Notes: generated by a model not told the origin, from the letters alone. A stretch of DNA of 57,211 bases from Vairimorpha necatrix (GCA_036630325.1 CP142734.1:1054001-1111211); one strand, 5' to 3'; shown: positions 11,165 through 57,211, counted from the stretch's first letter. Program-made: numbers and translations.

Positions 11165-13460
11165 TTGGGTAATATATTCGGCTTATTAATTACTTTTCAC
11201 AAGATACGCTTACAGTCTCATCTGGCAGTTCCAGGACTCCCTTCTGAGATTTACTCATTGGGCTCTCGAAAACCCCTTCCTGATCTGTATCAAGCCCATG
11301 TCTGGCTGACATAGTTAGGCTTTCTAAAGTCATTTTAATGTTTCTTGACTGTATATATGCTTCCGTTCTGATTTCTAATCTGAGCACTTTGATATGCGTA
11401 CTATGAAAATTAGTTACTATTCCATCCCACGTCATCACATAAAGAATAAATTTCGGCTTGTATTTGTAGAGAGAAGCTACATGATTTGCTAGCAAGTCGT
11501 ATTTATGTTTCTTTTCTGTTTCTACTGCATGGAGGTCGTTAAAACTTGTGATTCCAACTTCTACAACGATCACTTCTTTTCTCAACTTGTCTACAATTAG
11601 TATATCAGGCTTGTTATACTTTTTTAAATACTTGAATGTATCCTACTGTCGACTCGTATCTCAACATACTCATTAGCTACACATTCCTGGACTGAATGAT
11701 TTCTAATTCTTTTGGCATGGGATAGACCATACGTCTTACACAACTGCAGGTGGATGCATCGCAGTGCCTCATTGTGCCGTCTCATGTAATCATGTGAAAG
11801 CATACGATCACATTGGGTAGCCATATTATTTACTGTCTTTGCATATTCATGGCAGTGTGGGCATTTTTTCTGCTTCTCTAAGAAAATATTTCGGTCCTGT
11901 AATGCACAAAAATTGCCTTCCTCTCTCGGGCTTATAATTTCTTTTTGTGAGCCACGTGGCAGCCTGTTTTATATCAATAAGTGAATCGTCTTTTGGTCTA
12001 AATAGCTTTGAATGGTTTGTTTTTATTTTTATATCGCTATAAAGAGATTCGGTTTGAGCCTCTATTAATATTTTAGCTGTTACGTTTTCCTTAAGTTTAT
12101 ATTTTTCTTTTAATATCCTTCTATGGTGGATAGATATGTATAGCCAGTTTTCTCAGAGTGGAAAATCGCTTTGCGTCTTAGAACAGATTCTTTCGTGCTT
12201 TCAAATTCTTTGGCTAGTTGTAAAAGCATTCTTTCACTTTTATGTTCTACGCATTGGAGCCCTCTTCCAAGTTCGGCTCTGGAGAGATATAATCTTTCTT
12301 TAGTTGCAGGTTGTTGATGGACGTGATATTTAATCAATAATTTTCTGATGTTGTCGTCTATGATCTTGTATTCTTCTGGTTCAGCATCTATTATTCCTAT
12401 ATAGTAATTTATTAGGCTTATTCCATGTTCATTGATTGCTTTAAACAAATGTTTCGCATTCGGCTTAGTTTTACATAACTTTTCGATTCTTATTTTGATG
12501 GCCTTCCATATTTTTTCCTTTGTTTCCTTCATTATCTTACCTTCGTGGATTTCCGTAATGCCTAGATATTTATACCCCTCATGCCCCTCTAGCAACTTGC
12601 CTTCATCTTTACACTTTATACTATTTGTAGCCGATTTTCCACGTTGATTTCTAGACCTACAGTATTAAAGAATTTTCTTGTCTCATCTATCATCTCTTTC
12701 AATACTTCCTCATTTTGACAAGAAATTTTAAATCGTCAATAAACAACAAATGGTTAGTTACAAATGCTAGTTCTCCCAACGGGATGCTTAACTTTGGGTA
12801 TATACTATTCAATTTACGACTTAGCGGGTCTATACACAGCTCAAACAATAACGGGGACAAACTATCTCCTTGTAATATTCCTCTTCTGACCTTCTTTTCC
12901 ATGATCTTCTCATTTCCTTCAAATATTTCTAGATTCCACTTGCTGGCCATTATTTCTATTGTCTTACATATCCACTCTGGTAGTCCCAGAGCTTTAATGC
13001 ATTTTATTAAATAGTCATGTCTTACTGAGTCATACGTCTTCTTAACATCTATCCAGGCCGGTTTAATTTTATAATTTTATTCTCTATTCAGCATGTAATT
13101 TGTCATTGCCTGTTCTTTAGCTCCCTGCACTTTCCTCTTTGCTCCCATCTGGTTATCTGCTAATAGAGAGTTTGATTCCACTAGTTCCTGGAGTAAGTAT
13201 GTAATACATTTTGTTGTAAGTTTGTACAAGTTGGACATACATGTAATGGGTCTAAAGTCTTATTCTTCCACTGGTTGCCCTTTAGGTATCAGATAAGTAA
13301 TTCCTCTGTAAAACCATTCTTCTTCCGTATAACTCTCCAGGCATATTTTCTTAATTACTTTGTAAAGAGATTCATGTAGGCTAGACGTTTTCTTTATAAA
13401 GAAATTATAGACTTTATCTGGACCTGCTGCTTTCCAGTTGGGCAGCCATCAAACAATGAA
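11165..13460 (-). mobile_element. 5'-truncated, degenerate non-LTR retrotransposon with restriction-like endonuclease (R4/Dong-like)
   Basis: Minus-strand fragments in order: LPNWKAAGPD, DFRPITCMSNLYK, WIDVKKTYDSV, GILQGDSLSPLLF, HLLFIDDLK (RT), YKYLG, RLYLSRAELGRGL, CPHC...NMATQC (CCHC with H replaced by N), RRHN and KPDILIVD...VEVG (RLE). Stop at 11190. Several frameshifts and stops. Confidence 0.9.
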
Positions 13461-14962: not shown

Positions 14963-16028
14963 GGCTAATATCAGCATCTGTGTAAAAAAACTGGGGGGTC
15001 AAAATTTTTAAAAAATTGCCCCTTTTTTTAAAAAACGAAGGGAATGATGAGCAATGAGGAAATTGAAGATTTTTATATATCTTTAACAAATAAAAAAAAA
15101 AATCAAAATGTATTAAATGTGGTTGGGATACAGCTATTGTATCAAATGAATCTGCTTACTTGAGGTGTAAGTCTTCAAATTGCAAACACAGATTTTCAAT
15201 TTGGAAAAATTCTTTGTTTGAAAACACTAGACTAGAACATTTACTGATGTTAAAAATAGTAAATTTGTGGATATTAGGAATTAAAGTAATTCTCATATCA
15301 AAGATTTTGGGATGTAATGTACAAAATGTAAGTTACACCCTAGATAAATTATATAAATTAAAAATTTATGATAAGTATTTGAACAAGGTGAAGCTCATAG
15401 GCGGCCAAGATATAATTGTAGAAATAGATGAAAGTAAAATTGGCAAAAATAAGCATCATAGGGGAAGATTAGTTATGGGGTTTTGGTGTTTCGGTATAGT
15501 GGAACGAACCGAAGCAAAGAAGATTGTATTCGTAATTATAAAGAAAAGAGACAGGGATACATTATTTCCAATCATGTTAAAGCATGTAAATTTTGAATCC
15601 GTAATTCATTCGGATATGTGGAGGGCGTATGCAACGTTAAAAAATCATTATGCGGACCATAGGACTGTGAATCACAGTCAAACTTTTAGAGACAGAGAGA
15701 CAGGTGTGCATAAAAACACAATAGAAGGGAATTGGAGGTCTTTAAAGGCCTCTATATCTAATAGGTGTAGGACTTATGAACTAGCCGAAATATATTTAGT
15801 TCTATATATGATTAAAAGAAATGAGAGCGAAGACATCTTCAAAGCATTATTAAAATTATGTTTTTAATATATTTTATTTATTTTAAAGTTAATTTTCATG
15901 CATTTTTATATCTTAATTACATTTTTTGTTTTTTCTGAAGTTTTCTCTTCCCTTCGTTTTTTAAAAAAAGGGGCAATTTTTTAAAAATTTTGACCCCCCA
16001 GTTTTTTTACACAGATGCTGATATAGCC
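14963..16028 (+). mobile_element. Merlin (ISXO2/IS1595-like) DNA transposon, 1,066 bp
   Basis: Near-perfect ~81-bp TIRs at 14963-15044 and 15948-16028 (GG...CC ends, one 1-nt indel). Perfect 9-bp TSD taatttaat at 14954-14962 and 16029-16037. Confidence 0.95.
15044..15867 (+). CDS. ISXO2/Merlin DDE transposase (1-nt frameshift in the A11 run at 15092-15102)
   Basis: Catalytic motifs VEIDES, IHSDMWRAY and HKNTIEGNW. An N-terminal Zn ribbon CIKC...CKSSNC lies in the same frame upstream of the called ORF. The ATG at 15044 follows gggA but is out of frame by one base. Confidence 0.88.
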
Positions 16029-23506: not shown

Positions 23507-23544
23507 TGTTAACCATTTATATATTAAGGGTTCTAAACCCTACA
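23507..23544 (-). repeat. 3' LTR (38 bp)
   Basis: Minus strand tgtagggtttagaacccttaatatataaatggttaaca. Preceded by a polypurine tract at 23545-23554. Contains the integrase TAG stop. Confidence 0.9.
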
Positions 23545-24438
23545 TCCCCCCTCCAGACGGGTAGTCTCTCCATCTTCTAAACAACTCTTCCTTATCTCTT
23601 TCAAATCATAATGCCTCTTTTTAACAATTTTACCATCCAGTAGTCTCACAATATATGAATCATTTTCACTTATAGCTACGATCCTTCCGCGACCCGTGAA
23701 TCTTCCCTTGTCTGTTTTCGCACGTGTACTCAAATTTTCTCTCCTAGCGATTCTTACCTCTTGGCCTACTGTAAATGTCTCTCTGTGTCTTCTCTTGAAC
23801 CGACCAGCATATTTTCCATTTTCATCATTTTTAATTATAACTTCAGCAGTTTGATCTCTCCACGCTTCCATCGGCGTACATTTTATTGCTGTATGTAGTG
23901 TATTATTATATTCTTTGATTGCTCTTTCTATCTTTTCAGAAATATTCCCATCATTTTGCTTTATCAATGTCTCTCTTATAGTTCTGATGCATCTCTCGAT
24001 TCTACCATTACTCCTATGAGCTTCTAAGCCCACTTTCCTATGTTTAATATCATTAATACTACACCATTCTTTAAATCTATTACTTACAAACTCTTTTCCG
24101 TTGTCTGTCACATATTCCTCTGGAAATCCATCTTCCCTTATCCACTTTTGTAATACCTCTATAACTTCAATACTCTCTTTACATCTCAAATTCGAACCCC
24201 ACAACCTTCTAGTAAAGTAATCAATACCCAGTAACACATACCTATTCTCTCCACCTATGTCCATTAAATCCAACGCCACTTTCTCCAATTTCTTTTTAGT
24301 TACTACGAAATCACATCCTCCTGTGTTTTTCCTATTGTTAATCCCACATATTTCACAATTCTTAATTACCTTATTAATATGATCTTTCATACCAGGCCAA
24401 TACCATCTTTGTTTATTGTTATTAAGTGCCTTTGACAC
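23533..24438 (-). CDS. Ty3/gypsy integrase (frameshifted from the RT-RH ORF within the HHCC finger)
   Basis: WYWPGM...CEIC, then ALDLM, TDNGKEF and NGRIER with D-35-E spacing. The HH half (HEELNH) is at the end of the upstream ORF. Confidence 0.92.
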   Translation of the reverse strand: MSKALNNNKQRWYWPGMKDHINKVIKNCEICGINNRKNTGGCDFVVTKKKLEKVALDLMDIGGENRYVLLGIDYFTRRLWGSNLRCKESIEVIEVLQKWIREDGFPEEYVTDNGKEFVSNRFKEWCSINDIKHRKVGLEAHRSNGRIERCIRTIRETLIKQNDGNISEKIERAIKEYNNTLHTAIKCTPMEAWRDQTAEVIIKNDENGKYAGRFKRRHRETFTVGQEVRIARRENLSTRAKTDKGRFTGRGRIVAISENDSYIVRLLDGKIVKKRHYDLKEIRKSCLEDGETTRLEGGCRV

Positions 24439-26203
24439 CTCTATGGTTTAACTCCTCATGTACTCTTGTTATTTCATGTTCTCTACTATCTAGGCTCAAT
24501 ATCTCTTTCACCTCACCTGTGGAAAATTCCCAATACTGTTTACCGTCCTTTTCTTTAATATGTTGTTGCTTTTTTCCCAAAATTTGTTTTTCGATCACTT
24601 CTTTTCTCTTGTTGTCCTTTTCTTTTTGTTCATCCGAAACTTCTACCTGATCATACTGCCTACTTAACGCATCTGCATCTGTCATCAACTCCCCTTTCAC
24701 ATACTCTATTGTAAAGTCAGACTCTTGTATCTGTTCTACCCATCTGTTTATTCTGTTATTATTGAAGTATGGCTTATTTCTGATCTCTGCTAATGCTTTA
24801 TGATCCGTCATCAAATGAAATTTCCTTCCTCTCAAATCACTTTCAAACTTCTTTATTCCAAAAAACACCGCCAACATCTCCTTCTCACTTATCGTATATC
24901 TTCGCTCGGTAGGAGTCAACATTTTCGATGCCCATTGTATCGGAATCCACTCACCCTCTTTATTTTCTTGTAATAGAATTGCTCCGATCCCCGTATCACA
25001 CGCATCAGTTCTTACTCTAAATAACTTCTTTCCGTCCGGAATCTTCAACTTTTTCATATCTCTCAAGCCTTGCTTCATATCCTCAAAAGCTCTTTCCATA
25101 TCCTCCGTCCAATTCCACTTAACATCTTTCTTTAAAGCCTCAGTAAGCCTTACTGTTTTATACGCATAGTTGGGAATAAAGTCTCTAAACCAACCAGTTA
25201 GTCCTAAAAATCTTCTTAACTCTCTAACATTCTCAGGTTTTCTATATTCCAATGTCTCCTGCTTTTTAATCTCATTCGGTCCCATGACCTCCCCATTAAT
25301 TGTTACTCCCAGCAACATCACCTCATCTTTTTTGTATTGTATCTTTGTTTGGTTTATTCTCAACCCACACTCTTTAAACTTTTTAATTACCCTCTCTAGT
25401 AACTCGTCATGCACTCTTACGTCTTTACCATGAATAACTATATCATCCATATATACTTCCACGCCTTTACCTCTAAATTCATCTAAAACTCTGTTCATTA
25501 CTCTCTGCATTATATGAGGCGAATTCTTAAACGACATAACCATACTATTCCATTCGTATACTCGACCATTCACTTCAAATGCCGTTTTGAGCTTATGGTG
25601 CTCCTCAATCTCAATATGATAAAACCCTTCTTTTAAGTCGATAACCGTAAATACTTTTGACCCCTGTGTGGCTCTCATAATATCCTTAATTAACGGTAGT
25701 GAGTACGGGTCCTTGTCAACCAAATCGTTTAACGCCATCAAATTGCTTACCAATCTTACGTCCCAATTTGGTTTTTCAAGTGCTCTTATTGGACTCCTCC
25801 ACTCACTTTTGGAACGTCTTATAACCCCTCTATTTTCCAACTTATTCAAGTACTCCTCAAATTTCACCCTAAGGTAGTATGGCACATTCTGCCCTATTTT
25901 CACAACCTTTTCACCTTGCTTAGTATTTATTGGACACTTCTCTCCTGTGAGATATTTTATCTTTTCTTCTGATTCTTTAAAAACTTCCAGATACTTTTCA
26001 ATTAAATTTTCTAACTTATTTACTGTTTTACATCTTTTCCCTTCATTGTTGATAATTGGTTCTTTCTGTAAAACTTGTTCCTTTTTAATTTTATATTTTT
26101 CCCTACCAGCTACACTTTCATGACATTCTCTAGCGTAATGCCCTTCTTTCTTACATATAAAACATTTTGTAGTTTCTCTGATTTCTCTTCTTTTCCTATA
26201 CAT
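24422..26203 (-). CDS. Gag zinc knuckle + reverse transcriptase + RNase H
   Basis: CFICKKEGHYAREC knuckle; RT motifs IDLKEGFYHI and YMDD; RNase H motifs TDAC, EKEMLAV and TDH. No aspartic protease motif between the knuckle and RT. Confidence 0.93.
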   Translation of the reverse strand: MYRKRREIRETTKCFICKKEGHYARECHESVAGREKYKIKKEQVLQKEPIINNEGKRCKTVNKLENLIEKYLEVFKESEEKIKYLTGEKCPINTKQGEKVVKIGQNVPYYLRVKFEEYLNKLENRGVIRRSKSEWRSPIRALEKPNWDVRLVSNLMALNDLVDKDPYSLPLIKDIMRATQGSKVFTVIDLKEGFYHIEIEEHHKLKTAFEVNGRVYEWNSMVMSFKNSPHIMQRVMNRVLDEFRGKGVEVYMDDIVIHGKDVRVHDELLERVIKKFKECGLRINQTKIQYKKDEVMLLGVTINGEVMGPNEIKKQETLEYRKPENVRELRRFLGLTGWFRDFIPNYAYKTVRLTEALKKDVKWNWTEDMERAFEDMKQGLRDMKKLKIPDGKKLFRVRTDACDTGIGAILLQENKEGEWIPIQWASKMLTPTERRYTISEKEMLAVFFGIKKFESDLRGRKFHLMTDHKALAEIRNKPYFNNNRINRWVEQIQESDFTIEYVKGELMTDADALSRQYDQVEVSDEQKEKDNKRKEVIEKQILGKKQQHIKEKDGKQYWEFSTGEVKEILSLDSREHEITRVHEELNHRGVKGT

Positions 26204-26544
26204 CCTAAGATTTTTTCTTCCCTAAACTCTTTCAACACTTTATACATAATCTCTTTAATCATTTCTTGTCTTTCTTCTGACTCTCTCTCAAATTCTGCTC
26301 CTTTTTGTAAGCCTTTATAAATTTCCTCCCAACTGCTCCTTCCGTCACAAAAATTTTCAAAAATATAATCCTGCAAGTTCGCAGATGCCAAATCCATAAC
26401 ATCTTTCCACTCAACTTTCTCAACTTTCAATATTAACTTTAGTCCCTTATCTATCCTAATTGCCTCTTTCTCTAATGTTCTAGCCTCTTGACTACGGGAC
26501 TCTCTTGTTTCCCTGTTCATCCTTGTGTTCGCCATGTTAACCAT
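26110..26544 (-). CDS. Short Gag N-terminal portion
   Basis: ORF starts inside the 5' LTR and overlaps the next ORF. An A6 run near 26212-26217 is the probable frameshift site. Confidence 0.65.
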   Translation of the reverse strand: MVNMANTRMNRETRESRSQEARTLEKEAIRIDKGLKLILKVEKVEWKDVMDLASANLQDYIFENFCDGRSSWEEIYKGLQKGAEFERESEERQEMIKEIMYKVLKEFREEKILGCIGKEEKSEKLQNVLYVRKKGITLENVMKV

Positions 26545-26780: not shown

Positions 26781-28711
26781 AATTTATTTGATTCAAAATA
26801 GAAAAATTTTAAAAATTCAATATAATGGTATAAATTATATATAAAGCTGAAGAATATATAATATTCAAAAACATAACTTTTTTCAAAAATTTTATTACAA
26901 CACAAAACAAAAAAAAACTAGTTACTTACAAAAAGAAATTTATTGATTTGTTTTAGCTATCACGAAAAATAAAAGAAGTGTAAACTAAAAGATTTAATAA
27001 GTATTATTAGTTATATATTGCCTTTTTTAGGTTAATGTGATATATTCAACAAACTATTATTACAGTTATATAAAAATTCAAAATTCAACATTTATATTCC
27101 TTTTATAAAACCGAATCATTTTTACGTACTATCATGATTGACACACCTCAGGCTTTCCAAAATCCTATCAATTATACATACGTATTCACAGCTTTACGGT
27201 TCTCAGATATAGGTCCATAAAATAATATATCCAACAAATTACATCATAATAATAAAAAACTAAATTAAATAATGTTTGCTAAAACTTGTTATTATGATTT
27301 TTTTACAATAAGAATTAGTTCAAATTTATAAAATAAAAGTTTTAATACTTTAATAAGACATAAGATTTTTGAATTTAATTGTTTTACGAAATAGTGTAAT
27401 GGACTAAATCATAATGAACATTGTGTAATGAACATAAACCTTACATAAAGAAATATATATTTAATAAATATATTAAAGATAGATAAATATATTATGCTCA
27501 TGTAATGATAAAATAATATAGACCACAAAGTAGTGCTTTAAATATAACTTTAGTATGTGATAAGCATACAATTGATAATGTATTTTTTTTCCTTAAGATG
27601 AAGTTAATTACAAATACAAAAACCTACGTAGTTAGAATTTGGAGAATTAGTTTAATGATGAGATAGGTAAATGACTGCTATAGATAAACATTTCAAATTT
27701 AAGATTCTTATTTAATAATTTAATTGATCCAACAAAATTTAAAATAAAAAGCAAAATTAATATCATATGCTACATTTTATAATTTATTTTTGTTATCCAT
27801 ATAAATTTTTAATAGCAAAAGATATACTACAACTATACATTTAAATACACCTTACCTTCTAGTTCATGTTACTGTGTATATACCAAGAATCAAAAAGTAG
27901 AAGATCTCATTATTTAACTTTATTATATTGAAATTCCTTAAGTTTTCTAATTAAATCATTTAAAAGACAAATAACTATATAGATACAAGTTATGGGAATT
28001 AAAAAAAAATATATTTAATAAAAAAATGTGTTCTAGGAAATAATTAACAATAAATTTATAGAAAATGTAATAATAAATTATCCTTCTCATAAATCTAAAT
28101 TACAAAATAAAATTTTTTGATTCAGATATAGCTTACATTTATATATTAATAGATAAAATATTTTACAAATGTTATATATGCTTTTCTTTGCGATCGTTTA
28201 CTGGGAGTTTAAACAAATTTTTAAATTTATCCCATAAAGAGTAATTTCTTTCCGTATCGAATTACCAAACTAATTCGATTATAAGTTTTATTATCGAAGG
28301 ATAGTATTGCAGAACATTTTAAAATTTTTGTATAACACTGGTCTGTATAGATGACACAGTCCAAAATTTGGCTTAAGTCTATTGCATATATTCTCAAATA
28401 TTACATTATTTAGATTTTAAATTACGTTTCCTAAATAAATAGTTGTAAACTAGTCGACAGAATCTGTGATAAAAGATTATATTGCATTGTATTCATAATA
28501 TCATAATTAATTCAATACAACGTACGTTTGAATAGTATTTATATTAATTTATTCGAAACAAGAATTTAACTTAGCAAACAATTATGAGTATATTTTATAA
28601 CTAAGTGATATGATAATATAATAAATAACAAAAAACATGGAATTTTATTTTGTATATTAAGTCAATTTTTGTGTTAACTGAAAAAAACTTTATTGAGAAT
28701 CGTTTTTCTTG

Positions 28712-28735
28712 TAGGTTAGGTAGGTATGTTAGGTA
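28712..28735 (+). repeat. Short interstitial telomere-like sequence
   Basis: taggttaggtaggtatgttaggta, in the same orientation and with the same two units as the terminal array. Confidence 0.6.
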
Positions 28736-29334: not shown

Positions 29335-31165
29335 CATATAAGAAGGAACAATGTCGTAAAATTAAAAATATCTAAGACTTCATATAAATCTATATTATTG
29401 TTATATAAGTGACATTTGTGTATCTTTTTTTGATTTTAAAGCATTTATGAAATTTGCCATTTTCATCTCCTTCTTGTATATATGTATATAAGAAGACAAA
29501 TCTTGCAAAATATGAAAAAATTAAGAACTTCTGAAAATGCTTATAAATTCATATTATTGCCATATAAGTACTTTTTTGTATCTTTTTTTGTTTTAAAGCA
29601 TTTATGAAATTTGCCATTTTCCATCTCCTTCTTGTATATATATATAAGAAGACAAATCTTGCAAAATATGAAAAAATTAAGAACATCTAAGACTACATAT
29701 AAATATATATTATTGGTATATAAGTGAACTTTGTGTGTCTTTTTTTGTTTTTGAGCCATTTAAAAGATTTGTTATTTTTCCATCTCTTTCTTGTATATAT
29801 ATATATATATATATATATAAGAAGACAAATCTTGCAAAATATGAAAAAATTAAGAACAGCTGAAAATGCATATAAATTCATATATTTGTTATATAAGTAC
29901 TTTTTTGTATCTTTTTTTGTTTTAAAGCATTTATGAAATTTGCCATTTTCCATCTCCTTCTTGTATATATATATAAGAAGACAAATCTTGCAAAATATGA
30001 AAAAATTAAGAACATCTAAGACTACATATAAATATATATTATTGGTATATAAGTAAACTTTGTGTGTTTTTTAAGTTTTTGAGCCATTTATGAAATTTGC
30101 TATTTTCCATCTCCTTCTTGTATATATATATAAGAAGACAAATCTTGCAAAATATGAAAAAATTAAGAACAGCTGAAAAAGCAAATAAATACACCTTATT
30201 GTTATATAAGTACTTTTTCTGTATCTTTTTTTGTTTTTAAAGCATTTATGAAATTTGCCATTTTCCATCTCCTTCTTGTATATATATATAAGAAGACAAA
30301 TCTTGCAAAATATGAAAAAATTAAGAACATCTAAGACTACATATAAATTCATATTATTGTTTTACAAGTACTTTTCAACATTCTTTATTTGTTTTTAAAG
30401 CTTTATGAAATTTGCCATTTTTCCATCTCTTTCTTGTATACATATATAAGAAGACAAATCTTGAAAAATATGAAGAAAATTAAGAACAGCTGAAAAAGCA
30501 AATAAATACACCTTATTGTTATATAAGTACTTTTTCTGTATCTTTTTTTGTTTTTAAAGCATTTATGAAATTTGCCATTTTCCATCTCCTTCTTGTATAT
30601 ATATATAAGAAGACAGATCTTGAAAAATATAAAAAAATTAAGAACATCTAAGACTACAACTAAATTCATATTATTGTTTTACAAGTACTTTTCAACATTC
30701 TTTATTTGTTTTTAAAGCTTTATGAAATTTGCCATTTTTCCATCTCTTTCTTGTATACATATATAAGAAGACAAATCTTGAAAAATATGAAGAAAATTAA
30801 GAGCAGCTGAAAAAGCAAATAAATACACCTTATTGTTATATATGTACTTTTTCTGTATCTTTTTTTGTTTTTAAAGCATTTATGAAATTTGCCATTTTCC
30901 ATCTCCTTCTTGTATATATATATAAGAAGACAGATCTTGAAAAATATAAAAAAATTAAGAACTTCTGAAAATGCATATAAATACACATTATTGCTATATA
31001 AGTGACTTTTTATGTTTTTGTGCCATTACAAGATTTGTCATTTTTTCATCTCCTTCCCGTATATCTATATAAGAAGACAGATCTTGAAAAATATAAAAAA
31101 ATTAAGAACATCTAAGATTACATATAAATTCATATTATTGTTATACAAGTACTTTTTGTGTATAT
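29335..31165. repeat. Tandem satellite, ~159-bp monomer, ~12 copies, ~317-bp higher-order dimer
   Basis: Recurrent (ta)n-aagaagacaaatcttg.aaaatatgaaaaaattaagaac. Monomers alternate between atctaagactac and a/t-gctgaaaa.gc variants. Duplicated ORF artefacts are offset by 317 bp (30403/30720). Confidence 0.95.
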
Positions 31166-32478
31166 ATATGCGTACTTATTAGTTTATTATATTTTATTTT
31201 TTCTTTAAGTGAATCAAAGTATGTCTTTCTTATATAGATTTATAAACAGAATGATTCTAAAAGTTTCTTGTGTAAACGTGGTTGTTTTACGATTTAAAAT
31301 TCTAACATAAGAATAAAATTGAAAATGAATACTAATTGGTAAAAAATCTTATTATAATGATTAAATATTTTAAAAACTCCCAGAAACAATCTCTATTTTA
31401 ATTACAATTACATCTAAATATATATACAAGTCTTTAAGTATCAGCAATATTTCTAATTTTTTTGGCTAATGGAAAGTCTCTATGTATATTTGTTCATGAG
31501 AGAGATAATGAACACGAAAAAAGGAGAAATTGACATCTCATAAAAACTAGTGAAAATAACATATGTATATATGTAAGTAGATTGTGAAGTTTTTTTTATT
31601 AATTAAAACCTTTATTATATACATGATTTTAATTTTTTTAAAGGGTATCTATCTGCATATATATATATATATATATATAAAAGTACAAAATAAAAAACTT
31701 AAAAATCAAGAACAATATACATAAATATTAGTGCAGTGAAATTTATTGTATTGAAATAATAGAACTTTCTATATGGTAACAAATATTATATAAGTATTTT
31801 TATGTAATAAAACATTCAATTATATAATTATTGCCAGTATCAACACATAGAATAAATAGATTTTGAATTAAACAAATCAGAATATAATTTGTGTATAAAT
31901 CAGTAACAAACATTTTTTGAATTTAAAGATGAATTCTTATTATTGGAATACATCGAGGTATATTAGAAAGAATATAATCGTGGATAAAAAACAACCAATA
32001 CCCCATTGGAAAACAATACTGTATAAAAATACAACACTTTAATATAATATAGAACGAAATTTAAATATTATGTAGATTTTATATTTTATTCATCTAATAC
32101 GAGTGAGCGATTATATAAATGTATCGAAAATAAACACAATTTCAATTAAGAATTATAGCAAAATCTCATATGTACGTATGTATGAATTTAACATTGAAAT
32201 TATCATAAATTATAATTTTCATACAAAAATGTAGATATTATCGTAGCCAATCAAATACTGATCAATCATATTCTCACAAATTGGCTAAAAAAAGTATTTA
32301 GAAAAATTTCTAAAAGAGGGCATGGAAAATAAGATTAAAGAAATTTGCATATTTCAAATAAAAATGATCTTATAAAATCATGTAATTATATTATATAATT
32401 GTATAATTTTTTGCATAATTTAATGAAAATTTTTAAAAAAATAAGCTTGAATAAGAATTTTCATATTTATAAAAATTA

Positions 32479-35317: not shown

Positions 35318-38300
35318 ATGTTTACGAAAAATCAAACAAAAAATGATTGTAGTAAGCAACCCAAAGCAAACGTCACTATCTCTCAGGAGATAAGTAGTAA
35401 TACTGAAAACAACAATGTTGTTTTCTATGAAGCCAAGACATCTGTAAATAGCACTAAAAATAAAAAAACAAATGCTGGAGAAACAAAAAAAAGGAATTCT
35501 ATATTCAGTTTCTCTAGCGAAAACAAAACGGCCCAAGAAACAGAAGAAACAATCATGAGAATTAATAACACTAAGATGGATGCTTTGACGGAGATTCTAG
35601 ATGTAGCTTGCAGAATCAGTACTAGAAACCATGCCGAACATTATTGTGGAGATCTCAAAGAAGAATGTGGCTTTTGTGGTGCATTACATTTTGCTGGAGA
35701 AGCAAGCAGTAATGGATTATACAAAAGCTGCTGTCATTTTGGGAAAGTTAAATTACAAAGAACAAGAGACTTCCCAGACGACATTAAGAATTTATATATA
35801 GGAAAAAATAAAGATGCAAAAAACTTCAGAGACAATATTAGATCCTACAATGCTGCTCTTTCTTTTGCTTCTCTTGGTGCTCAAATAGAAACTGTGTCTA
35901 ATGGTCCATATGTATTCAAAATACATGGACAAGTGTATCATAACACTTATAATGTAAATAATATGGACTCTAATACACCAAAGAAGTATGCTCAATTATA
36001 TGTAGTAGATAGTGATATGGCAAATGCCCAAAGAATGACGAATCCATCTAATAGAAATTGTAATATATATATCATGAGCAAATTAGATGGATTTATAAGA
36101 TCTGCCAATCCATATTCCGATGCATATAAAAATATGTCTGAAGTAATTAAGGAGCAAAGGGAGTTGGGAAAGGAAGTTAAAGACATTTCCATGGTCTTTA
36201 ATAAAAATTTAGAAAGAGATCAGAGAAGGTATAATGCTCCCTCTACAAGTGAAATCGCAATGATTTTCACTGATCCAAATGGAGAACCACCATTTGAAAG
36301 GGACATTAAAGTATATAGCAAGGGTCTTAGTTCTGATAATTTACATTTGGATATTTTAAGTTCACATTTAGATCCAATGACATATACTTTGTTCTATCCA
36401 CATGGCGAAGCTGGATGGAACGCAAATTTAAGGATTGAGTCTTATCATGGGGAATCACAGAAGATATCTTTACTACAATATAAAGTAGCACAAATATCTA
36501 TAAGAAAAGATAAGTTCAATCCTTTACTCTATGGAGGGAAGTTGTTTCAACAATGGATTGTAGATTCATATCTACAAGTAGAAGCAAACAACTTGAACTT
36601 CATAAAGTTAAATCAGAAGAAGTTGAGGGTAGATCTTTACAAAGGCTTAGTAGATTATATTAATAATGGAATAGAAAGTAATGCTAAGCCTGTAATTTTA
36701 CCATCAAGCTTCCAGGGATCTCCAAGAAATATGAGGGAAAGATACCACGATGCAATGTCTATCGTAAGAAATTTCGGCAAGCCCGATCTTTTTATTACTA
36801 TGACTTGCAATCCAAATTGGAAGGAGATAAAGGAGAATCTATTTGGGGGACAAACTGCAGTTGATAGGCCTGATTTGGTAGCAAAGGTCTTTAACTTGAA
36901 ATTAAAAAGCATGATGGAGGAGATTTTGTCAGGAAGAGTATTTGGGGAAGTTGTGGCTCATGTCTATTCCATTGAGTTCCAAAAACGTGGACTTCCTCAT
37001 GCTCACATATTGATAATGTTAAAGGATAAGATTCGGGATGAAGAAAGAATAGATAAGTATGTGAGTGCAGAAATACCATCACCCATGGACAATGAGATGT
37101 TACACAACTGTGTAACAAAACATATGATTCATGGACCATGTGGATTAAGTTACTTGACAAGTCCATGCATGGAAAATGGTGTCTGCACGAAAGAATATCC
37201 CAAAGAATATAACTTTGAAACAAAGATAAATAATGACGGATATCCTGAATACCGAAGAATAAGAGGGACCGAGTACAATGTAAGGGGGAACATTGTTACT
37301 AATGCTAACGTGGTCCCCTATAATGCTTATTTGCTTGAAAAATACAACTGTCATATCAATGTAGAAGTTTGTACTTCTATTAAGTCAGTTAAGTATATTT
37401 TCAAGTATATTTACAAGGGATTTGATTGTGCAGAAATGAGAATAACTGACAACAACGAAATTGATCATTTTGTGAATTCCAGATATGTTTCAGCACCTGA
37501 GGCTACCTGGAGATTAATGGAATACAAGATGCATGGGAGATCTCATAAGATCCATAGACTTCCTGTGCATCTTCCACAAGAACACTTGATCTCTTTCGAA
37601 GAAGGGAAAGAAGAGGAAGCTGTTAGATTATCTGATCTTAGACAGACTCCTCTTTTAGCTTACTTCAAATTAAATGAAGTCGATGAAGGGGCACATCAAT
37701 TTTCGTATAGTGAGATACCCTATCACTATACATATAAAAAAGGGGAATGGATAAGGAGAAAGAATAAGTATAGTAAGATAATTACTAGATTATATTCTGT
37801 ATCACCAACAGAAAAGGAAAGATTTAGCCTCAGAGTCCTATTGATCAATGTAAAGGGGGCTAAATCATATGAGGATTTGAGAACTGTAAATGGTGTAGTT
37901 TACAGTTCCTTTGCAGAAGCAGTGGAAGAGAGAGGACTTCTTCAAGATGATAAAGAATGGGAAAGGGCTTTAGATGAGGCAGTGGCAACCGAGTCCCCAT
38001 CAATAATAAGAGCATTGTTTGGATATATTTGTGCTTTTAATAAGCCAAAAAATACCAAAGAGCTCTTTGAGAAGTATCTTGAAGATATGTCTGAAGATCT
38101 AGATCAGAATAGTAGAGACGAAATATTAAGTAGATTAAAAGATATTGTCAATGCTCATGGATGGAGTCTAAATGCTCTGGGTTTAGATGAGCCGATTAAC
38201 TATATCGTGAAGGCAAAAACTATCTCTGATAATGGAAAAGATCTAGATCAGATGATCTCCTCTCTAAATGCAAAACAGAGGGATGCTTTTGATAAAATAA

Positions 38301-39610
38301 CAGATAATATTGATAAAAAGGGCAATTTATTCTTTTTAGATGGACCAGCTGGATCGGGGAAGACGTATTTATACAATGTCCTGGTTGAGTATCTAAGTAA
38401 GAATGGGAAATCTTCAATTCAAATGGCAACCACAGGTATTGCTGCAGATCTGCTAAAGGATGGAAGAACAATGCATAGCTGTATGAAACTTCCTGTTCCT
38501 TTGACAGAGACCAGCGTATCTAGATTAAAAAGAAATACTCCTGAAGCAGAGAAAATAATAAAGGCCTCATTATTGCTGATAGATGAAGTTTCGATGATGT
38601 CAAAACATGCATTGGACGTAATAGATGAGGTGCTTAAAAGACTCTGTAATAATAATGATATCTTTGGAGGGAAGACTTTATTATTGGGTGGTGATTTTAG
38701 ACAAACATCAACCATTGTAATGAAGGGTACTCCAAATGATATCATCGAGAACTCATTAATTAGTTCAAGACTTTTGGTACATGTCTGTGTACTAAAGCTT
38801 GAAACGAATATGAGATCTTATAATCAATTGGAGTTTAATAAGTGGTTGTTAGATATAGGCGAGGGGCGTACTAGAGATAGTAAAGGATGTGTGGAGATAC
38901 CCAAAGAATATCTTGAAGAAGGGAACATAGTCGATAACATTTTTGGAACAATCAAAATTGAAGCAGGTGATGATTCTTTGTTTGATAAGATTATCTTAAC
39001 GAGCAAAAATGAACATGCAAATGAATTGAATGCCAAAGTGATAAACCTACTTAATGGATCTTCGAGGGTATATGTGAGTTCTGATGCTATAGAATCAGAG
39101 GATATCGAAGAACAACTGAGATTTCCTCTTGAGTTCTTGAACATGCAACAGCCATCAGGACTACCTCCACATAAGTTAGTATTGAAGACAGGGGCAATAG
39201 TGATGTTGTTACGCAATATTGATCCTAAGAATGGATTATTAAATGGGACCAGATTAAAGATAAAAGGTCTTAAAGATAATTACATCTTAGGTGAAATAAT
39301 AACAGGAAGGGGAAGGGGCACCCTTGCTGTTATACCAAAAATAGACATGATGCCAAGTGACACTCTTCTTCCGTTTGTACTTAAAAGAAGACAGTTTCCT
39401 GTGGTATTGTCATATGCGATGACAATACATAAAGCACAGGGACAGTCTTTTGATAAAGTAGGAGTATACTTGCCTGAGGATGTATTTTCTCATGGTCAAT
39501 TATACGTAGCTTTGTCAAGAGTGAAGAAGAGTGAAAACTTGAGAGTCAAGTTGGGGGGAAACAGGGGCAATGTCAAAAATGTAGTTCTACATGAACTAAT
39601 TGGCTCATAA
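35318..39610 (+). CDS. Helitron RepHel transposase (HUH Rep + PIF1-like SF1 helicase), 1430 aa, intact
   Basis: N-terminal CGFC...CC motif. Rep motifs DLFITMTCNPNW, EFQKRGLPHAHIL and KYIFKYIYKG. Helicase motifs GPAGSGKT, LIDEVSM, GDFRQ, TIHKAQGQS and GQLYVALSRV. ccccatt precedes the ATG. Confidence 0.97.
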   Translation: MFTKNQTKNDCSKQPKANVTISQEISSNTENNNVVFYEAKTSVNSTKNKKTNAGETKKRNSIFSFSSENKTAQETEETIMRINNTKMDALTEILDVACRISTRNHAEHYCGDLKEECGFCGALHFAGEASSNGLYKSCCHFGKVKLQRTRDFPDDIKNLYIGKNKDAKNFRDNIRSYNAALSFASLGAQIETVSNGPYVFKIHGQVYHNTYNVNNMDSNTPKKYAQLYVVDSDMANAQRMTNPSNRNCNIYIMSKLDGFIRSANPYSDAYKNMSEVIKEQRELGKEVKDISMVFNKNLERDQRRYNAPSTSEIAMIFTDPNGEPPFERDIKVYSKGLSSDNLHLDILSSHLDPMTYTLFYPHGEAGWNANLRIESYHGESQKISLLQYKVAQISIRKDKFNPLLYGGKLFQQWIVDSYLQVEANNLNFIKLNQKKLRVDLYKGLVDYINNGIESNAKPVILPSSFQGSPRNMRERYHDAMSIVRNFGKPDLFITMTCNPNWKEIKENLFGGQTAVDRPDLVAKVFNLKLKSMMEEILSGRVFGEVVAHVYSIEFQKRGLPHAHILIMLKDKIRDEERIDKYVSAEIPSPMDNEMLHNCVTKHMIHGPCGLSYLTSPCMENGVCTKEYPKEYNFETKINNDGYPEYRRIRGTEYNVRGNIVTNANVVPYNAYLLEKYNCHINVEVCTSIKSVKYIFKYIYKGFDCAEMRITDNNEIDHFVNSRYVSAPEATWRLMEYKMHGRSHKIHRLPVHLPQEHLISFEEGKEEEAVRLSDLRQTPLLAYFKLNEVDEGAHQFSYSEIPYHYTYKKGEWIRRKNKYSKIITRLYSVSPTEKERFSLRVLLINVKGAKSYEDLRTVNGVVYSSFAEAVEERGLLQDDKEWERALDEAVATESPSIIRALFGYICAFNKPKNTKELFEKYLEDMSEDLDQNSRDEILSRLKDIVNAHGWSLNALGLDEPINYIVKAKTISDNGKDLDQMISSLNAKQRDAFDKITDNIDKKGNLFFLDGPAGSGKTYLYNVLVEYLSKNGKSSIQMATTGIAADLLKDGRTMHSCMKLPVPLTETSVSRLKRNTPEAEKIIKASLLLIDEVSMMSKHALDVIDEVLKRLCNNNDIFGGKTLLLGGDFRQTSTIVMKGTPNDIIENSLISSRLLVHVCVLKLETNMRSYNQLEFNKWLLDIGEGRTRDSKGCVEIPKEYLEEGNIVDNIFGTIKIEAGDDSLFDKIILTSKNEHANELNAKVINLLNGSSRVYVSSDAIESEDIEEQLRFPLEFLNMQQPSGLPPHKLVLKTGAIVMLLRNIDPKNGLLNGTRLKIKGLKDNYILGEIITGRGRGTLAVIPKIDMMPSDTLLPFVLKRRQFPVVLSYAMTIHKAQGQSFDKVGVYLPEDVFSHGQLYVALSRVKKSENLRVKLGGNRGNVKNVVLHELIGS

Positions 39611-51100: not shown

Positions 51101-54100
51101 ATATTTTTCAATAATAATACTATTTAATATTTCACCTGGACGTTTTTAAGATTATTTACAAAAAAAAATAAAATAAAAGTCTAAAAGTTAGAATTGGATA
51201 TATTAAATATTAACAATATGGTAATACTTCGAAACAAATAAGAATCTTGGAAAAAACACCTAAATAATATTTATATATCGTTAGTCTCAAAATTTTAAAA
51301 GTATTCAAAAGAAATTAAATTTTAGAATATATAATAACTCATTTACACATATTTAAATAAAAAAATAAAAAATTTTATTATTTAGCAAAAAAACGAAATA
51401 TTATAAGTTAAAAGACTAAACTTAAAAATTACTCTTATAAAGTAAAAAATTTCGTTCTTTGTCTTATAATTATCAGATATTTAAAATTTAATAATAAAAA
51501 ATTTGAATATAACCTTTATAGTCAATATTTTTAATGTAAAATAAAATTTAATTTTGATATTATACATTGTCTATAAATCAATAAAAGCGTTAGATTAAAT
51601 CTAAGCATGATAAGGTCAAGAATATTTTTGACTTAATATAAATTTTATAATACACAGAGATTTATCTACAAGTAAAATAAACATAATGCCAATAAAAATC
51701 TTTGAAAAAACTAATATATTTCGAAGCCCAATTTCAATAAAGATAAAAGGGGTTAATATTACAAAAATAATTTTTTAAAAAAAATATATTTAAAGTAGTA
51801 GGATAACTTTTTTTAAAAAAAAACATATTGGACTAAAACTCGTTTTGAAAATAGATATTTTCTTTTAGAATAGTTAATAAAAACATTCAAACTAAACGTT
51901 CAAATAATTTTAGATAAGTAAAAAGAAGAAAATTTTTATACAATTTTTTTTATTGACTAATTAATCTAGAAGTCTCAACCACTAAAACGAAAATAATATT
52001 TTTTGAACATTAAATTGAATTTTATATTTTCAAATTTCTCTCTTAATAATACACATACGACTGATTAAAATAAATAATAGTTTTAGAACATATAACGACT
52101 TAATCTTTTTTTATAAATAATATATCAATCGAACATATAAAATGCAATATATTACACCTACATTATTAAAGATGATGATATATTCAACCTACACGAAAAT
52201 ATATGATTAAATAACGAAAAATTTATAAAAATATTAAAAATAATCTATTAAAAATTTTCATATATTTGTATTTAAAAAGAAACCATATCACGGAGGGTTT
52301 TAAAAATTGTAAATTAAAGTTACTAAATTTCAATCAATTTCTCATAAAGTTTTATAAATGATTTAAATTATTCTTATAGTAAAACATTAAAACTATTTAT
52401 CGCAAGGAAACATAGGAAAGTTCTTCATATCTAAAAACTCATTTTTTTATTCTTAACTTAAGTTTTTAAAATTATTAAAAAAATGTAGCATATATAAACC
52501 AAATAATATCAAGAAAATTCATAAATAAAAATTTAAAGTCTTAAAGAAACATAAAGACACACGACGAAAATAAAATAAAAACATCTATAGAGGAACTTCA
52601 CGAACGACATTCCATTCTGTTATCCTTTATTACAACAGTATTTTGAAATTTTTGGTTGTAATCTGTAAAAAAATTATAAAATACAAAAATTATTTCATTG
52701 GGAATAATATTTAATATCTAAGAAATAAATCTAATAATGGTCAGAAAACATATTAAATATATTTTAAATGATAAGATAATCAATAAATATATATATATAT
52801 ATATATATATACAAATTGTAAATTAAACAAACTAGGCTGTAAATGAATTTCGTATTTCTTCATTTGAATTTTTATAGTAAATATCAGATATTCCACGTAT
52901 TTATTATTAATACTATAATTATAGTAAAAATAAAATCAAAATAAATATAGAATTAGAAAATTTATTGAAATATATCTTACACTAATCCAAGAATTAAAGA
53001 ATATAAATCAATAAGAGCTAAGAAAGGTTAAAAAAAAGTATAAACAAAACCCAATTCAACTAATTAATAGATATTTTTATAAATTTGAGAATAATATAAT
53101 GTAAGAGCGTATAAATTAAAAAACAAATCTTAAATTTAATAATTACAGAAAATATTTTTATGCTTAAACCCAATTACATTTTAAACATAGATGCGGTTGA
53201 CGATTTCTAATTATTATTAAATTATTTTTAATTTAAAGATTAATTGATAAAAAAATATAATAATAAATTGATAAATTAAATTTCAATTATTAAAACAGAA
53301 AAATCTTTATGAATTTTTTTGAATAAACATTTTGATTTTTGTAGAATGAAATCAATCTAATGATTTAATTAAATTTAAAATTTTTTAATAATCCATGAAT
53401 TGGTTTTATATAAAAAATTACAAATTAACATAACACATTAAGTAAAACATTTTCATATAGAATGTTAAGTTACTTTTAAACTATCCGCAATTTTTTACGC
53501 AATAATTTAGAATATACAACATATCTGAATCACAAAAAATCTATCAATATTAACTGGTTATCAAATATATCAAATATGGTTTTCTTCATAAACGAGATTA
53601 TATAAAGATCAAGCAAGAAGTAAATCCAACGGTTATAAAAGAAAATATTTAAGTAGAACAAAACATATAATCAAATATAATTCTTATAAGATGTATTTTT
53701 CAATTATCCAATATTTTCACACCCTCTTATTTTTAAAATATTATATTTCCTGCTATAGAAAATTGAATCCCAAAGAGAACATAAAAAATAGACACAATAT
53801 CATTTGTAATAATAAAAGTCATCCTGACAGTTGGGAAAATACATAGATAAATAAGATTGTACATTAGAAGAAGCCGCATACCTATGATGCAGCCAAGTAG
53901 ATATAAATATTCATAAAAAAATTCAAAAAAACAATTTTTTTCTATTCTTTTTTATTCTATAAAAATAAATTAAATCATATTACTTTAGAATAATCATAAT
54001 TACTTTCATTGATCTATTTTAAAATCACAAAAATTTATATATTTGATATTCAAATGTAATTAGTTATTCGTATTGTATTTTCAAACAAACACTGGAATCT

Positions 54101-54644
54101 AGTCCTTAATGTTTCCAAATTATTACGTCCTTTTACTTTCTTGGAATAATGATTTAATTTTTTTATTCAAAGTGATTATCATAAGCTTTCCTAAAGAGTA
54201 TAAGCTCCTGTTTCTGTATATATGCGTTAGTACATCATTCGAGATTTAAGTTATTCGTATAATATCGCTAAAATATTATTTTTTAGTATAATACGAATAT
54301 TTCCAGTAAAAAAAATTTGTAAAAACACAAGAATGACCTTTTTTTACAATAATATATATTACAAAATAAAGACATAATTTCATACTTTAACAATATTTTT
54401 TTTTCATAAATTTATTCGCAGAATTACACCAAAAATACTTTAAGTTTTAAAAATTAGTAATCTGATTAAAATACTTAAATTAAGAGATAGTTAGTTAAAA
54501 TTTTCTAACATATTTTTAGTTTTTTTTATTTTAGCTACATATTAATTTAATTGATAAATTTTTTAAAAAAAAGATATAGAAAGGTTTAAGGACTATAAGC
54601 TTACTTTTATGTAGGTTAGGTAGGTTATTCTTGTCGTAGAGCTA

Positions 54645-57211
54645 TAGGTAGGTAGGTTAGGTAGGTTAGGTAGGGTAGGTAGGTAGGTAGGTAGGTAGGT
54701 TAGTTAGGTAGGTTAGTTAGGTTAGGTAGTAGGTTAGGTAGTAGGTAGTAGGTTAGGTAGGTAGGATAGGTAGGTAGGTTAGGTAGGTAGGTTAGGTAGG
54801 TAGGTAGGTAGGTTAGGTAGGTTAGGTAGGTGTTTAGGTTAGGTAGGTAGGTAGGTTAGTTAGGTAGGTTAGGTTAGGTAGGTTAGGTAGGTTAGGTTAG
54901 GTTAGGTAGGTTAGGTAGGTAGGTAGGTTAGGTGGTTAGGTTAGGTAGGTAGGTTAGGTAGGTAGTAGGTTAGGTTAGGTAGGTTAGGTAGGTGGTAGGT
55001 AGGTTAGGTAGGTAGGTTAGGTAGGTTAGGTAGTAGGTTTAGGTAGGTAGTAGGTTAGGTTAGTAGGTAGGTAGGTAGGTAGGTTAGGTTAGGTAGGTAG
55101 GTTAGGTTAGGTAGGTTAGGTTAGGTAGGTAGGTTAGGTAGGTAGTAGGTAGGTTAGGTTGGTAGTATAGTAGGTTAGGTAGGTTAGTAGTTTAGGTAGG
55201 TTAGTAGGTTAGGTAGTAGGTTTAGGTAGGTTAGGTAGGTTAGGTAGTAGTAGGTTAGGTAGGTTAGGTAGTAGGTAGGTTAGGTAGGTAGGTTAGGTAG
55301 GTTAGGTAGGTAGGTTTAGGTTAGGTAGGTTAGGTAGTAGGTAGGTTAGGTTAGGTTTTAGGTTAGTTAGGTAGGTTAGGTTAGGTAGGTTAGGTAGGTA
55401 GGTTAGGTAGGTAGGTTAGGTAGGTTAGGTAGTAGGTTAGGTAGGTAGGTTAGGTTTAGGTTAGGTTAGGTAGGTTAGGTTAGGTAGGTAGGTTAGGTTA
55501 GGTTTAGGTAGGTTTAGGTAGGTTAGGTAGGTTAGGTAGGTAGGTAGGTTAGGTAGGTTAGGTAGGTTAGGTAGGTTAGGTAGGTTAGGTAGGTAGGTTA
55601 GGTAGGTAGGTAGGTAGGTAGGTTAGGTTAGGTAGGTTAGGTTAGGTTAGGTTAGGTAGGTTAGGTAGGTTAGGTTAGGTAGGTAGGTTAGGTAGGTAGG
55701 TTAGGTAGGTAGGTAGGTAGGTTAGGTTAGGTAGGTAGGTTAGGTAGGTTAGGTAGGTAGGTTAGGTAGGTTAGGTAGGTTAGGTAGGTTAGGTTAGGTT
55801 AGGTAGGTAGGTAGGTAGGTAGGTTAGGTTAGGTAGGTTAGGTAGGTAGGTAGGTTAGGTAGGTAGGTAGGTTAGGTAGGTTAGGTAGGTTAGGTAGGTT
55901 AGGTAGGTAGGTAGGTAGGTTAGGTAGGTAGGTTAGGTAGGTAGGTTAGGTTAGGTAGGTTAGGTAGGTAGGTAGGTTAGGTAGGTTAGGTAGGTTAGGT
56001 AGGTTAGGTTAGGTTAGGTAGGTTAGGTTAGGTTAGGTTAGGTAGGTTAGGTTAGGTAGGTTAGGTAGGTTAGGTAGGTTAGGTAGGTTAGGTTAGGTAG
56101 GTTAGGTAGGTTAGGTAGGTTAGGTAGGTAGGTTAGGTAGGTTAGGTTAGGTAGGTTAGGTAGGTAGGTTAGGTAGGTTAGGTAGGTTAGGTAGGTAGGT
56201 TAGGTTAGGTTAGGTAGGTTAGGTAGGTTAGGTAGGTAGGTAGGTAGGTAGGTAGGTTAGGTAGGTTAGGTAGGTAGGTAGGTAGGTAGGTAGGTTAGGT
56301 TAGGTAGGTAGGTTAGGTAGGTAGGTTAGGTTAGGTAGGTAGGTAGGTAGGTTAGGTAGGTTAGGTAGGTAGGTAGGTTAGGTAGGTAGGTTAGGTAGGT
56401 AGGTAGGTTAGGTAGGTTAGGTAGGTTAGGTAGGTAGGTTAGGTAGGTTAGGTAGGTTAGGTAGGTAGGTAGGTTAGGTAGGTTAGGTAGGTTAGGTAGG
56501 TTAGGTAGGTAGGTTAGGTAGGTAGGTTAGGTTAGGTAGGTAGGTTAGGTAGGTTAGGTAGGTTAGGTAGGTTAGGTAGGTAGGTTAGGTTAGGTTAGGT
56601 TAGGTAGGTAGGTAGGTAGGTTAGGTAGGTAGGTTAGGTAGGTTAGGTAGGTTAGGTTAGGTTAGGTAGGTAGGTAGGTAGGTAGGTTAGGTAGGTTAGG
56701 TAGGTTAGGTAGGTAGGTTAGGTAGGTTAGGTAGGTTAGGTAGGTTAGGTTAGGTAGGTAGGTTAGGTAGGTTAGGTTAGGTTAGGTAGGTTAGGTAGGT
56801 TAGGTAGGTAGGTTAGGTTAGGTTAGGTAGGTTAGGTAGGTTAGGTAGGTTAGGTAGGTTAGGTAGGTTAGGTAGGTAGGTAGGTTAGGTAGGTAGGTTA
56901 GGTTAGGTAGGTAGGTTAGGTAGGTAGGTTAGGTAGGTTAGGTAGGTTAGGTAGGTTAGGTAGGTAGGTAGGTTAGGTTAGGTTAGGTAGGTTAGGTAGG
57001 TAGGTAGGTAGGTTAGGTAGGTAGGTTAGGTAGGTAGGTAGGTAGGTTAGGTAGGTAGGTAGGTAGGTTAGGTTAGGTAGGTTAGGTAGGTAGGTTAGGT
57101 AGGTTAGGTAGGTAGGTTAGGTAGGTTAGGTAGGTAGGTAGGTAGGTTAGGTAGGTAGGTTAGGTTAGGTAGGTAGGTAGGTTAGGTAGGTTAGGTAGGT
57201 AGGTAGGTAGG
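54645..57211 (+). repeat. Telomeric array of mixed TAGG and TTAGG units (2,567 bp to window end)
   Basis: The G-rich strand runs 5'->3' toward the sequence end. The proximal part has variants (TAG, TTTAGG, TGG, TAGGG); the distal part appears to be only TAGG/TTAGG. A short outlier block lies at 54612-54627. Confidence 0.96.

Follow-up and report, generated by a model that had tools for sequence, protein, structure and literature searches.

Composite array of TAGG and TTAGG units at the end of a Vairimorpha necatrix chromosome stretch

Is the chromosome end of the microsporidian Vairimorpha necatrix built from one repeat unit or from two? The question is raised by a stretch of 57,211 nucleotides (GCA_036630325.1 CP142734.1:1054001-1111211), here called the window, which ends in a long array of TAGG and TTAGG units in irregular order. 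The V. necatrix genome was assembled with hifiasm from high-fidelity (HiFi) reads of mean quality value (QV) 34 and polished with Flye, and its description identifies the pentanucleotide TAACC, found manually, as the telomeric signature on 42 of 48 contig ends (PMC10759460, assembly and telomere passages). The telomere passages of a second paper assign to V. necatrix "the same 5-mer" as to Encephalitozoon and Ordospora, with TTAG in Glugoides and TTAGGG in Hamiltosporidium and Mitosporidium (PMC12449221). The array described here is very probably a genuine composite T(1-2)AGG telomere, the natural end of a V. necatrix chromosome, in which the 4-mer is the commoner unit.

A telomere of this kind has been described once before. 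The preliminary description of the window had known of no T(1-2)AGG telomere with so frequent a 4-mer, and on this point it was mistaken. According to the telomere passages of a paper of 2024 (Biology; PMC11592040), Nosema muscidifuracis carries a composite telomere with 75.3% TAGG, about 20% TTAGG and 1.5% TAGGG, located at 19 contig ends among 28 contigs of an assembly from HiFi and 10x Illumina data. According to its authors, no other microsporidian genome had been reported to carry the composite form; for N. ceranae their candidate, based on short reads, is TTAGG. A literature search combining TAGG, TTAGG and microsporidia returned this paper only, which was also the only relevant one, judged by title, for TAGG, TTAGG and telomere. 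Searches with the strings TTAGGTAGG and TAGGTTAGG yielded only primers, G-quadruplex oligonucleotides and ordinary TTAGG papers. The motif passages of the papers on hymenopteran telomeres contain no TAGG unit, and the text of a study of forty microsporidian genomes (PMC12558613) does not contain the letters "telomer".

Extent and composition of the array

Read directly, positions 54645-57211 (2567 bp) form a single unbroken array of T, A and G that continues up to the window's final base. Tandem Repeats Finder returned one array with exactly these coordinates, scoring period 9 (TAGGTTAGG) highest at 3153, followed by period 13 at 2971 and period 4 at 2695. The GC skew is +1.000 across 55001-57000, that is, the plus strand is without C, and this G-rich strand is oriented 5' to 3' toward the window end, which is the orientation of a telomere. 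The motif CCTAACCTACC, with at most one mismatch allowed, has 230 occurrences in the window, where chance alone predicts 0.27.

The units were parsed by cutting after each run of G, so that every unit is terminated by G. The whole array then consists of 584 units, comprising 318 TAGG, 228 TTAGG and 38 variants. The variants are TAG (15), TTTAGG (8), TTAG (7) and TGG (2), with TAGGG, ATAGG, TG, TTGG, TATAG and TTTTAGG found once each. Every one of them lies at or before 55513, within the proximal 874 bp, where they account for 38 of the 201 units and are mostly losses of a G (TAG, TTAG) or gains of a T (TTTAGG); among the 383 distal units there are none. In the distal part (55519-57211; Table 1) the variation is confined to the T run and the GG runs are intact in all 383 units, and there is no TAGGG. 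TAGG makes up 58% of the distal units and 52% of the bases, and TTAGG 42% of the units.

Variants in the proximal part followed by a homogeneous distal part are the arrangement of a telomerase-type telomere. The proximal third is the older portion, which has gathered variant units; continual resynthesis of the distal part would be expected to confine the variants to it. The array differs from a homogeneous (TTAGG)n repeat in that its longest TTAGG run is 4 units. Words of 31 nucleotides (31-mers) that are pure (TTAGG)n or pure (TAGG)n are absent from the array, and mixed 31-mers are present at 377 of 449 possible.

Order of the units and a candidate template

With S for TAGG and L for TTAGG, the order of the units was analysed chiefly on the 383 distal units. 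Successive pairs switch between S and L in 246 of 382 cases, so that the two units are interspersed throughout. After S the next unit is L in 123 of 221 cases (0.557) and S in 98 of 221 (0.443); after L it is S in 123 of 161 (0.764) and L in 38 of 161 (0.236). Successive units are not independent of each other (chi-square 39.2, p = 3.7e-10), and a likelihood-ratio test of order 0 against order 1 gives p = 4e-10. Raising the order from 1 to 2 yields p = 0.22, and the Bayesian information criterion (BIC) is 488.5 for order 1, compared with 521.5 for order 0 and 497.3 for order 2. A first-order Markov chain is thus the best fit, and order 1 is sufficient.

Further features of the order agree with this description. 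Runs of TAGG extend from 1 to 6 units with counts of 71, 29, 10, 9, 3 and 2, and runs of TTAGG from 1 to 4 units with counts of 98, 15, 7 and 3, both distributions being near geometric. The transition parameters are comparable in all three thirds of the array, and the lag-1 autocorrelation is -0.320 against an expected -0.321. The longest repeated string of S and L is 16 units, compared with 17.9 +/- 2.35 in 500 simulated first-order chains, 88% of which reach 16. Repeats of this length are expected from a first-order chain, so that the array lacks blocks of higher order. Adjacent canonical units in the proximal part, with S followed by L in 45 of 80 cases and L by L in 14 of 52, match the distal part.

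These results bear out most of what the preliminary description had read from the window. It had placed a TAGG/TTAGG array at 54645-57211, which direct reading and Tandem Repeats Finder both recover, and had seen two irregularly ordered units in the distal ~1.7 kb, which proves to be 1693 bp of TAGG and TTAGG only. Its frequent alternation and short runs are evident from the run lengths of 1-6 for TAGG and 1-4 for TTAGG. The unit-transition statistics that it had asked for give a probability of TAGG of 0.76 after TTAGG and 0.44 after TAGG (p = 4e-10). Its view of the array as telomere-type, with a real heterogeneity of two units and not noise, is upheld by the orientation, the intact GG runs and the non-independence of the units.

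What kind of template could produce such an order? The arrangement proposed here is one telomerase RNA template covering one 4-mer and one 5-mer, in the DNA sense ...AGG-TTAGG-TAGG and as RNA similar to 5'-CCUACCUAACCU-3'; the C-strand forms of the 9-mer unit are the permutations of CCUACCUAA. Copying of the full template would yield TTAGG-TAGG. After translocation, a 3' end in ...TAGG may pair at the 3' alignment site of the template, in which case TTAGG would follow (56%), or at the internal AUCC, in which case TAGG would follow (44%). Early translocation after a TTAGG unit would lead to TTAGG-TTAGG (24%). The near-even choice after ...TAGG (0.56 and 0.44) would follow from the same AUCC pairing being offered by both registers, and one template spanning both units and used in two registers would produce both the alternation bias and the first-order chain. 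The alternation bias therefore argues for one template with two alignment registers, and against two independent RNAs and memoryless slippage. The preliminary description had also put forward a template of both units with alternative alignment; the alternation that such a template predicts is seen in the transitions, and the template itself is deduced from them.

We regard a telomerase with a single two-unit RNA template as a mechanism on which the case is evenly balanced. Taken as one statement, a composite V. necatrix telomere made from a single two-unit template is moderately probable. Neither a telomerase RNA nor TERT lies within the window, and the Rfam and transfer RNA (tRNA) scans of the window were empty. 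A template-like motif outside the array occurs in the window only at 28710-28733 and 54610-54620, both within short interstitial tracts.

Mixed words in public sequences and other explanations

The 31-mers of 52212-57211 were compared with public sequencing runs. Among the 24 runs listed, 23 contain part of these words; they come from 10 studies, and some are labelled as bee metagenome. A bee as the source of the window, which these labels had brought to mind, was discarded in view of the match between the 5362-6231 product and V. necatrix. Among the matches listed, the share of words per run is 0.24-0.29 in 20 runs and 0.10-0.11 in 3, where the index may count distinct words or positions. For four runs (X15, X1, X2 and X9) reads were placed on 52212-55000; of the pieces listed, those falling on the unique part, 52212-54641, were 18-28 nt long and attributable to chance. 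The shared 31-mers probably lie in the array. As the array holds no pure 31-mer, the shared words cannot stem from a host whose telomeres are plain TTAGG, and their presence points indirectly to mixed T(1-2)AGG arrays in other organisms from unrelated studies. Run X1 (383 Mb) contains AT-rich contigs of 2-8 kb at a depth of 23-46, which would be compatible, as a guess, with a small genome rich in AT, for instance that of a microsporidian.

The mixed 31-mers are found partly in bee-metagenome runs, yet the bee parasite N. ceranae has been published as plain TTAGG in the passage on its candidate repeat. In microsporidia associated with bees, composite telomeres may have been recorded less often than they occur. 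Metagenomes were also scanned for TTAGG-TAGG-TTAGG-TAGG-TAGG, which gave 28 loci, 21 of them with a mixed array of at least 6 units. None of the 28 loci stands at a contig end in telomeric orientation. The three near an end (L006, L011 and L022) have the G strand directed inward and look like internal microsatellites of 37-45% GC; these loci were set aside as support for a telomere.

Could the TAGG units be an artefact of assembly, consensus or polishing, the true end being (TTAGG)n from which T's were lost? The telomere passages of the genome papers give a 5-mer for V. necatrix, the assembly passage reports polishing with Flye, the proximal variants here are mostly changes of homopolymer length, and the telomere passages for a lepidopteran assembly show occasional TAGG and TTAG in some TTAGG ends, which we, and not that paper, read as noise. 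Against this, the identical T deletion would be needed in 222 of 383 distal units with none of the 383 GG runs altered, while HiFi reads at the stated QV of 34 imply fewer than 1 error per 1.7 kb. Errors should also be independent between units, and the units are not. Both units are moreover reported at the 19 contig ends of the sister species N. muscidifuracis (PMC11592040, telomere passages), and mixed-unit 31-mers occur in the public runs of 10 other studies. An artefact is thus very unlikely. Still less credible is upkeep by recombination or rolling-circle copying in place of telomerase, with the mixture simply inherited. The telomere-protein sets of microsporidia are reduced, as described for Microsporidia sp. 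MB in passages on that species, and telomere-like sequence can evidently move or be copied, as the interstitial tracts at 28712-28733 and 54612-54627 demonstrate. The array, however, has no higher-order periodicity and no long duplicated string of units (16 units, against 17.9 +/- 2.35), its distal part lacks the variants that would have been spread by copying from the proximal part, and TERT is present in other microsporidia according to passages on their telomerase. It is the least probable of the explanations considered.

The remaining alternatives accept telomerase and differ in its RNA. A single-unit template of TTAGG or TAGG type may slip or skip at its T/A step, with a chance of slipping that depends on the alignment pairing of the previous unit. 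Such slippage would accord with the restriction of distal variation to the T run; and TTAGG is common in microsporidia and TTAG is also found, as the published passages on their telomeres show, so that unit length evolves by single bases in the phylum. A memoryless slip, however, would make the units independent, which is rejected at p = 4e-10. If the slip depended on pairing, a primer ending in TTAGG should pair better with the AAUCC site and TTAGG would presumably be favoured after TTAGG, contrary to the mere 24% of cases in which it follows. We consider slippage on a single-unit template unlikely. Two telomerase RNA paralogues acting on the same ends, one for TAGG and one for TTAGG, were the other possibility named in the preliminary description. 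The closest described example is that of Andrena bees, in which motifs that alternate at random were put down to such paralogues, the telomerase RNA genes being duplicated (bioRxiv 10.1101/2025.04.29.651168, motif passages). If the choice of enzyme is blind to the primer end, then P(S|S) = qS + (1-qS)a and P(S|L) = (1-qL)a, from which it follows that P(S|S) is never less than P(S|L) at any processivity. The observed values of 0.44 and 0.76 are the opposite of this requirement, and the paralogues are rejected in that form. The runs, capped at 4 TTAGG and 6 TAGG, also imply that neither enzyme would be processive. Two paralogous RNAs are accordingly a very improbable source of the mixture.

Several points weigh against a composite telomere copied from one two-unit template. 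The array is terminal at the level of the window, which it fills to 57211, and this last base is only taken to be the end of the contig as well. The telomere passages of the two V. necatrix papers (PMC10759460, PMC12449221) give a pentanucleotide and make no mention of a 4-mer. Polishing with Flye could disturb the exact order of the units in a repeat common to many chromosome ends. In the public data, no listed run contains at least half of the 52212-57211 words and none consists of V. necatrix reads; the shared words were assigned to the array by elimination, as read placement, made for 4 of the 23 runs, omitted the array as a repeat. A two-state first-order chain has two free parameters, so that the two-register fit is saturated by construction. 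The model is really tested only by the sign of the correlation and by order 1 being sufficient; it draws further support from parameters that stay the same along the array and from the absence of blocks. Among the 6 papers listed in the literature, judged by title, no microsporidian telomerase RNA was found.

The subtelomere and the comparison with known telomeres

The features of the window are collected in Table 1. The window has about 20% G+C, is gene-poor and carries several transposable elements. The patch and the spacer at 54612-54644 mean that the boundary between telomere and subtelomere is not a clean switch. A 16-mer, TGTAGGTTAGGTAGGT, is common to the interstitial tract at 28712-28733 and to the patch at 54610-54625, the flanks being unrelated; the former tract may have been left behind by an older chromosome end or by healing of a break.

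Table 1. Coordinates of the terminal array and of other features in the window
Feature	Position	Strand	Description
Proximal degenerate array	54645-55518	+	874 bp, 201 units: TAGG 96, TTAGG 67, variants 38
Distal pure array	55519-57211	+	1693 bp, 383 units: TAGG 222, TTAGG 161 only; irregular order, alternation bias
Telomere-like patch TAGG-TTAGG-TAGG-TTA	54612-54627	+	16 nt, just inside the subtelomere
Non-repeat spacer TTCTTGTCGTAGAGCTA	54628-54644	+	17 nt, between patch and main array; direct reading
Interstitial tract TAGG-TTAGG-TAGG-TATG-TTAGG	28712-28733	+	About 26 kb from the array
Open reading frame (ORF) of a gene family	5362-6231	+	289 amino acids (aa); no Pfam family; 95% identical to VNE69_06002 and 71% to VNE69_09002 (Vairimorpha necatrix)
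Fragmentary reverse-transcriptase ORF	12699-13076	-	In a 34-36% G+C patch, 11-13 kb
Compact DNA transposon	14968-16024		Perfect 77-nt terminal inverted repeats; IS1595/ISXO2-like (Merlin-type) DDE transposase ORF, E = 5e-17
Ty3-type retroelement	23533-26221	-	Reverse transcriptase/RNase H ORF, 593 aa, and separate integrase ORF, 285 aa, in another frame
Tandem satellite, ~158 bp (period 156-159)	29358-31239		Subtelomere; roughly 11-12 copies, 60-100% identical to reference copies
Helitron Rep/PIF1-helicase ORF	35318-39610		Intact, 1430 aa; Helitron_like_N E = 4e-62, PIF1 E = 1e-52

The identity of the gene-family product to two proteins that NCBI and UniRef assign to V. necatrix places the window in the Nosema/Vairimorpha clade. 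Both VNE69_06002 and VNE69_09002 are annotated as second genes, on at least two V. necatrix chromosomes, and these second-gene positions of the copies indicate that the family is a subtelomeric multigene family. The satellite contains short minus-strand ORFs (29693-31025), two of which (29693-30070 and 30720-31025) were scanned and gave no Pfam match. The perfect inverted repeats of the transposon suggest recent activity. The Helitron ORF has about 35% G+C in a background of 20% G+C, and its protein matched its own family in a protein atlas.

What is new here is the correction of the "5-mer", the Markov statistics and the hint of a wider occurrence in the clade. The finding is incremental and not a new kind of chromosome end. 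The description of the V. necatrix telomere is corrected, the published unit being a 5-mer, yet more than half of the units are 4-mers, and the sole reported composite TAGG/TTAGG telomere is extended to a second genus-level lineage. The order of the units proves to be informative in itself, in that its statistics set mechanisms apart. Software built to detect perfect tandem repeats will miss part of such telomeres or report them wrongly, and the two-unit template proposed above would provide a concrete search key for microsporidian telomerase RNA.

A wider proposal can be made only tentatively, with rather more doubt than belief: the entire Nosema/Vairimorpha clade, including the organisms behind the 23 runs, may use a single TAGG plus TTAGG template read in two registers. 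If this is true, the chromosome ends are a first-order Markov text with species-specific transition probabilities (58% TAGG here, 75% in N. muscidifuracis). A CCUACCUAACCU-like word outside the telomeres would then be a direct handle on the first microsporidian telomerase RNA, and the published "TTAGG" for V. necatrix, and perhaps for N. ceranae, would be simplifications.

The irregular telomeres of yeasts, such as TG1-3 in Saccharomyces cerevisiae and those of Schizosaccharomyces pombe, arise from one telomerase RNA that is used in several alignment registers and with abortive or partial copying, the kind of mechanism that is suggested here for V. necatrix as well. They are of other sequence and are far more degenerate, whereas the present array has two unit types and first-order memory is enough to describe it. 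In Andrena bees two related motifs, both 10-mers, are mixed in seemingly random order, as are the units here (bioRxiv 10.1101/2025.04.29.651168, motif passages). That mixture was ascribed to paralogous RNAs with different templates, whereas the alternation bias in V. necatrix argues against independent templates.

Among microsporidia, the (TTAGG)n telomeres of Encephalitozoon and Ordospora share with the present array the 5-mer, the orientation and probably the terminal position, and TERT is present in Encephalitozoon. In the published telomere passages these arrays, and that of V. necatrix, are described as homogeneous, whereas TTAGG runs here are at most 4 units long. The (TTAG)n repeats of Glugoides intestinalis and Microsporidia sp. 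MB likewise have a 4-base unit that differs by a single base in length. Their 4-mer, described as homogeneous in the corresponding passages, results from the loss of a G and not, as would apply to TAGG, of a T.

The closest counterpart is the telomere of N. muscidifuracis. As the passages on its telomere show, both units are interspersed in one terminal array, in an AT-rich member of the insect Nosema/Vairimorpha clade with a HiFi assembly, all of which holds, the terminal position probably, for V. necatrix. TAGG predominates in both, less strongly in V. necatrix, where the distal share of 58% of the units (52% of the bases) and the lack of TAGGG compare with 75.3% TAGG and 1.5% TAGGG in N. 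muscidifuracis. The telomere passages of that report (PMC11592040) give neither unit-order statistics nor a mechanism; both are given here for V. necatrix.

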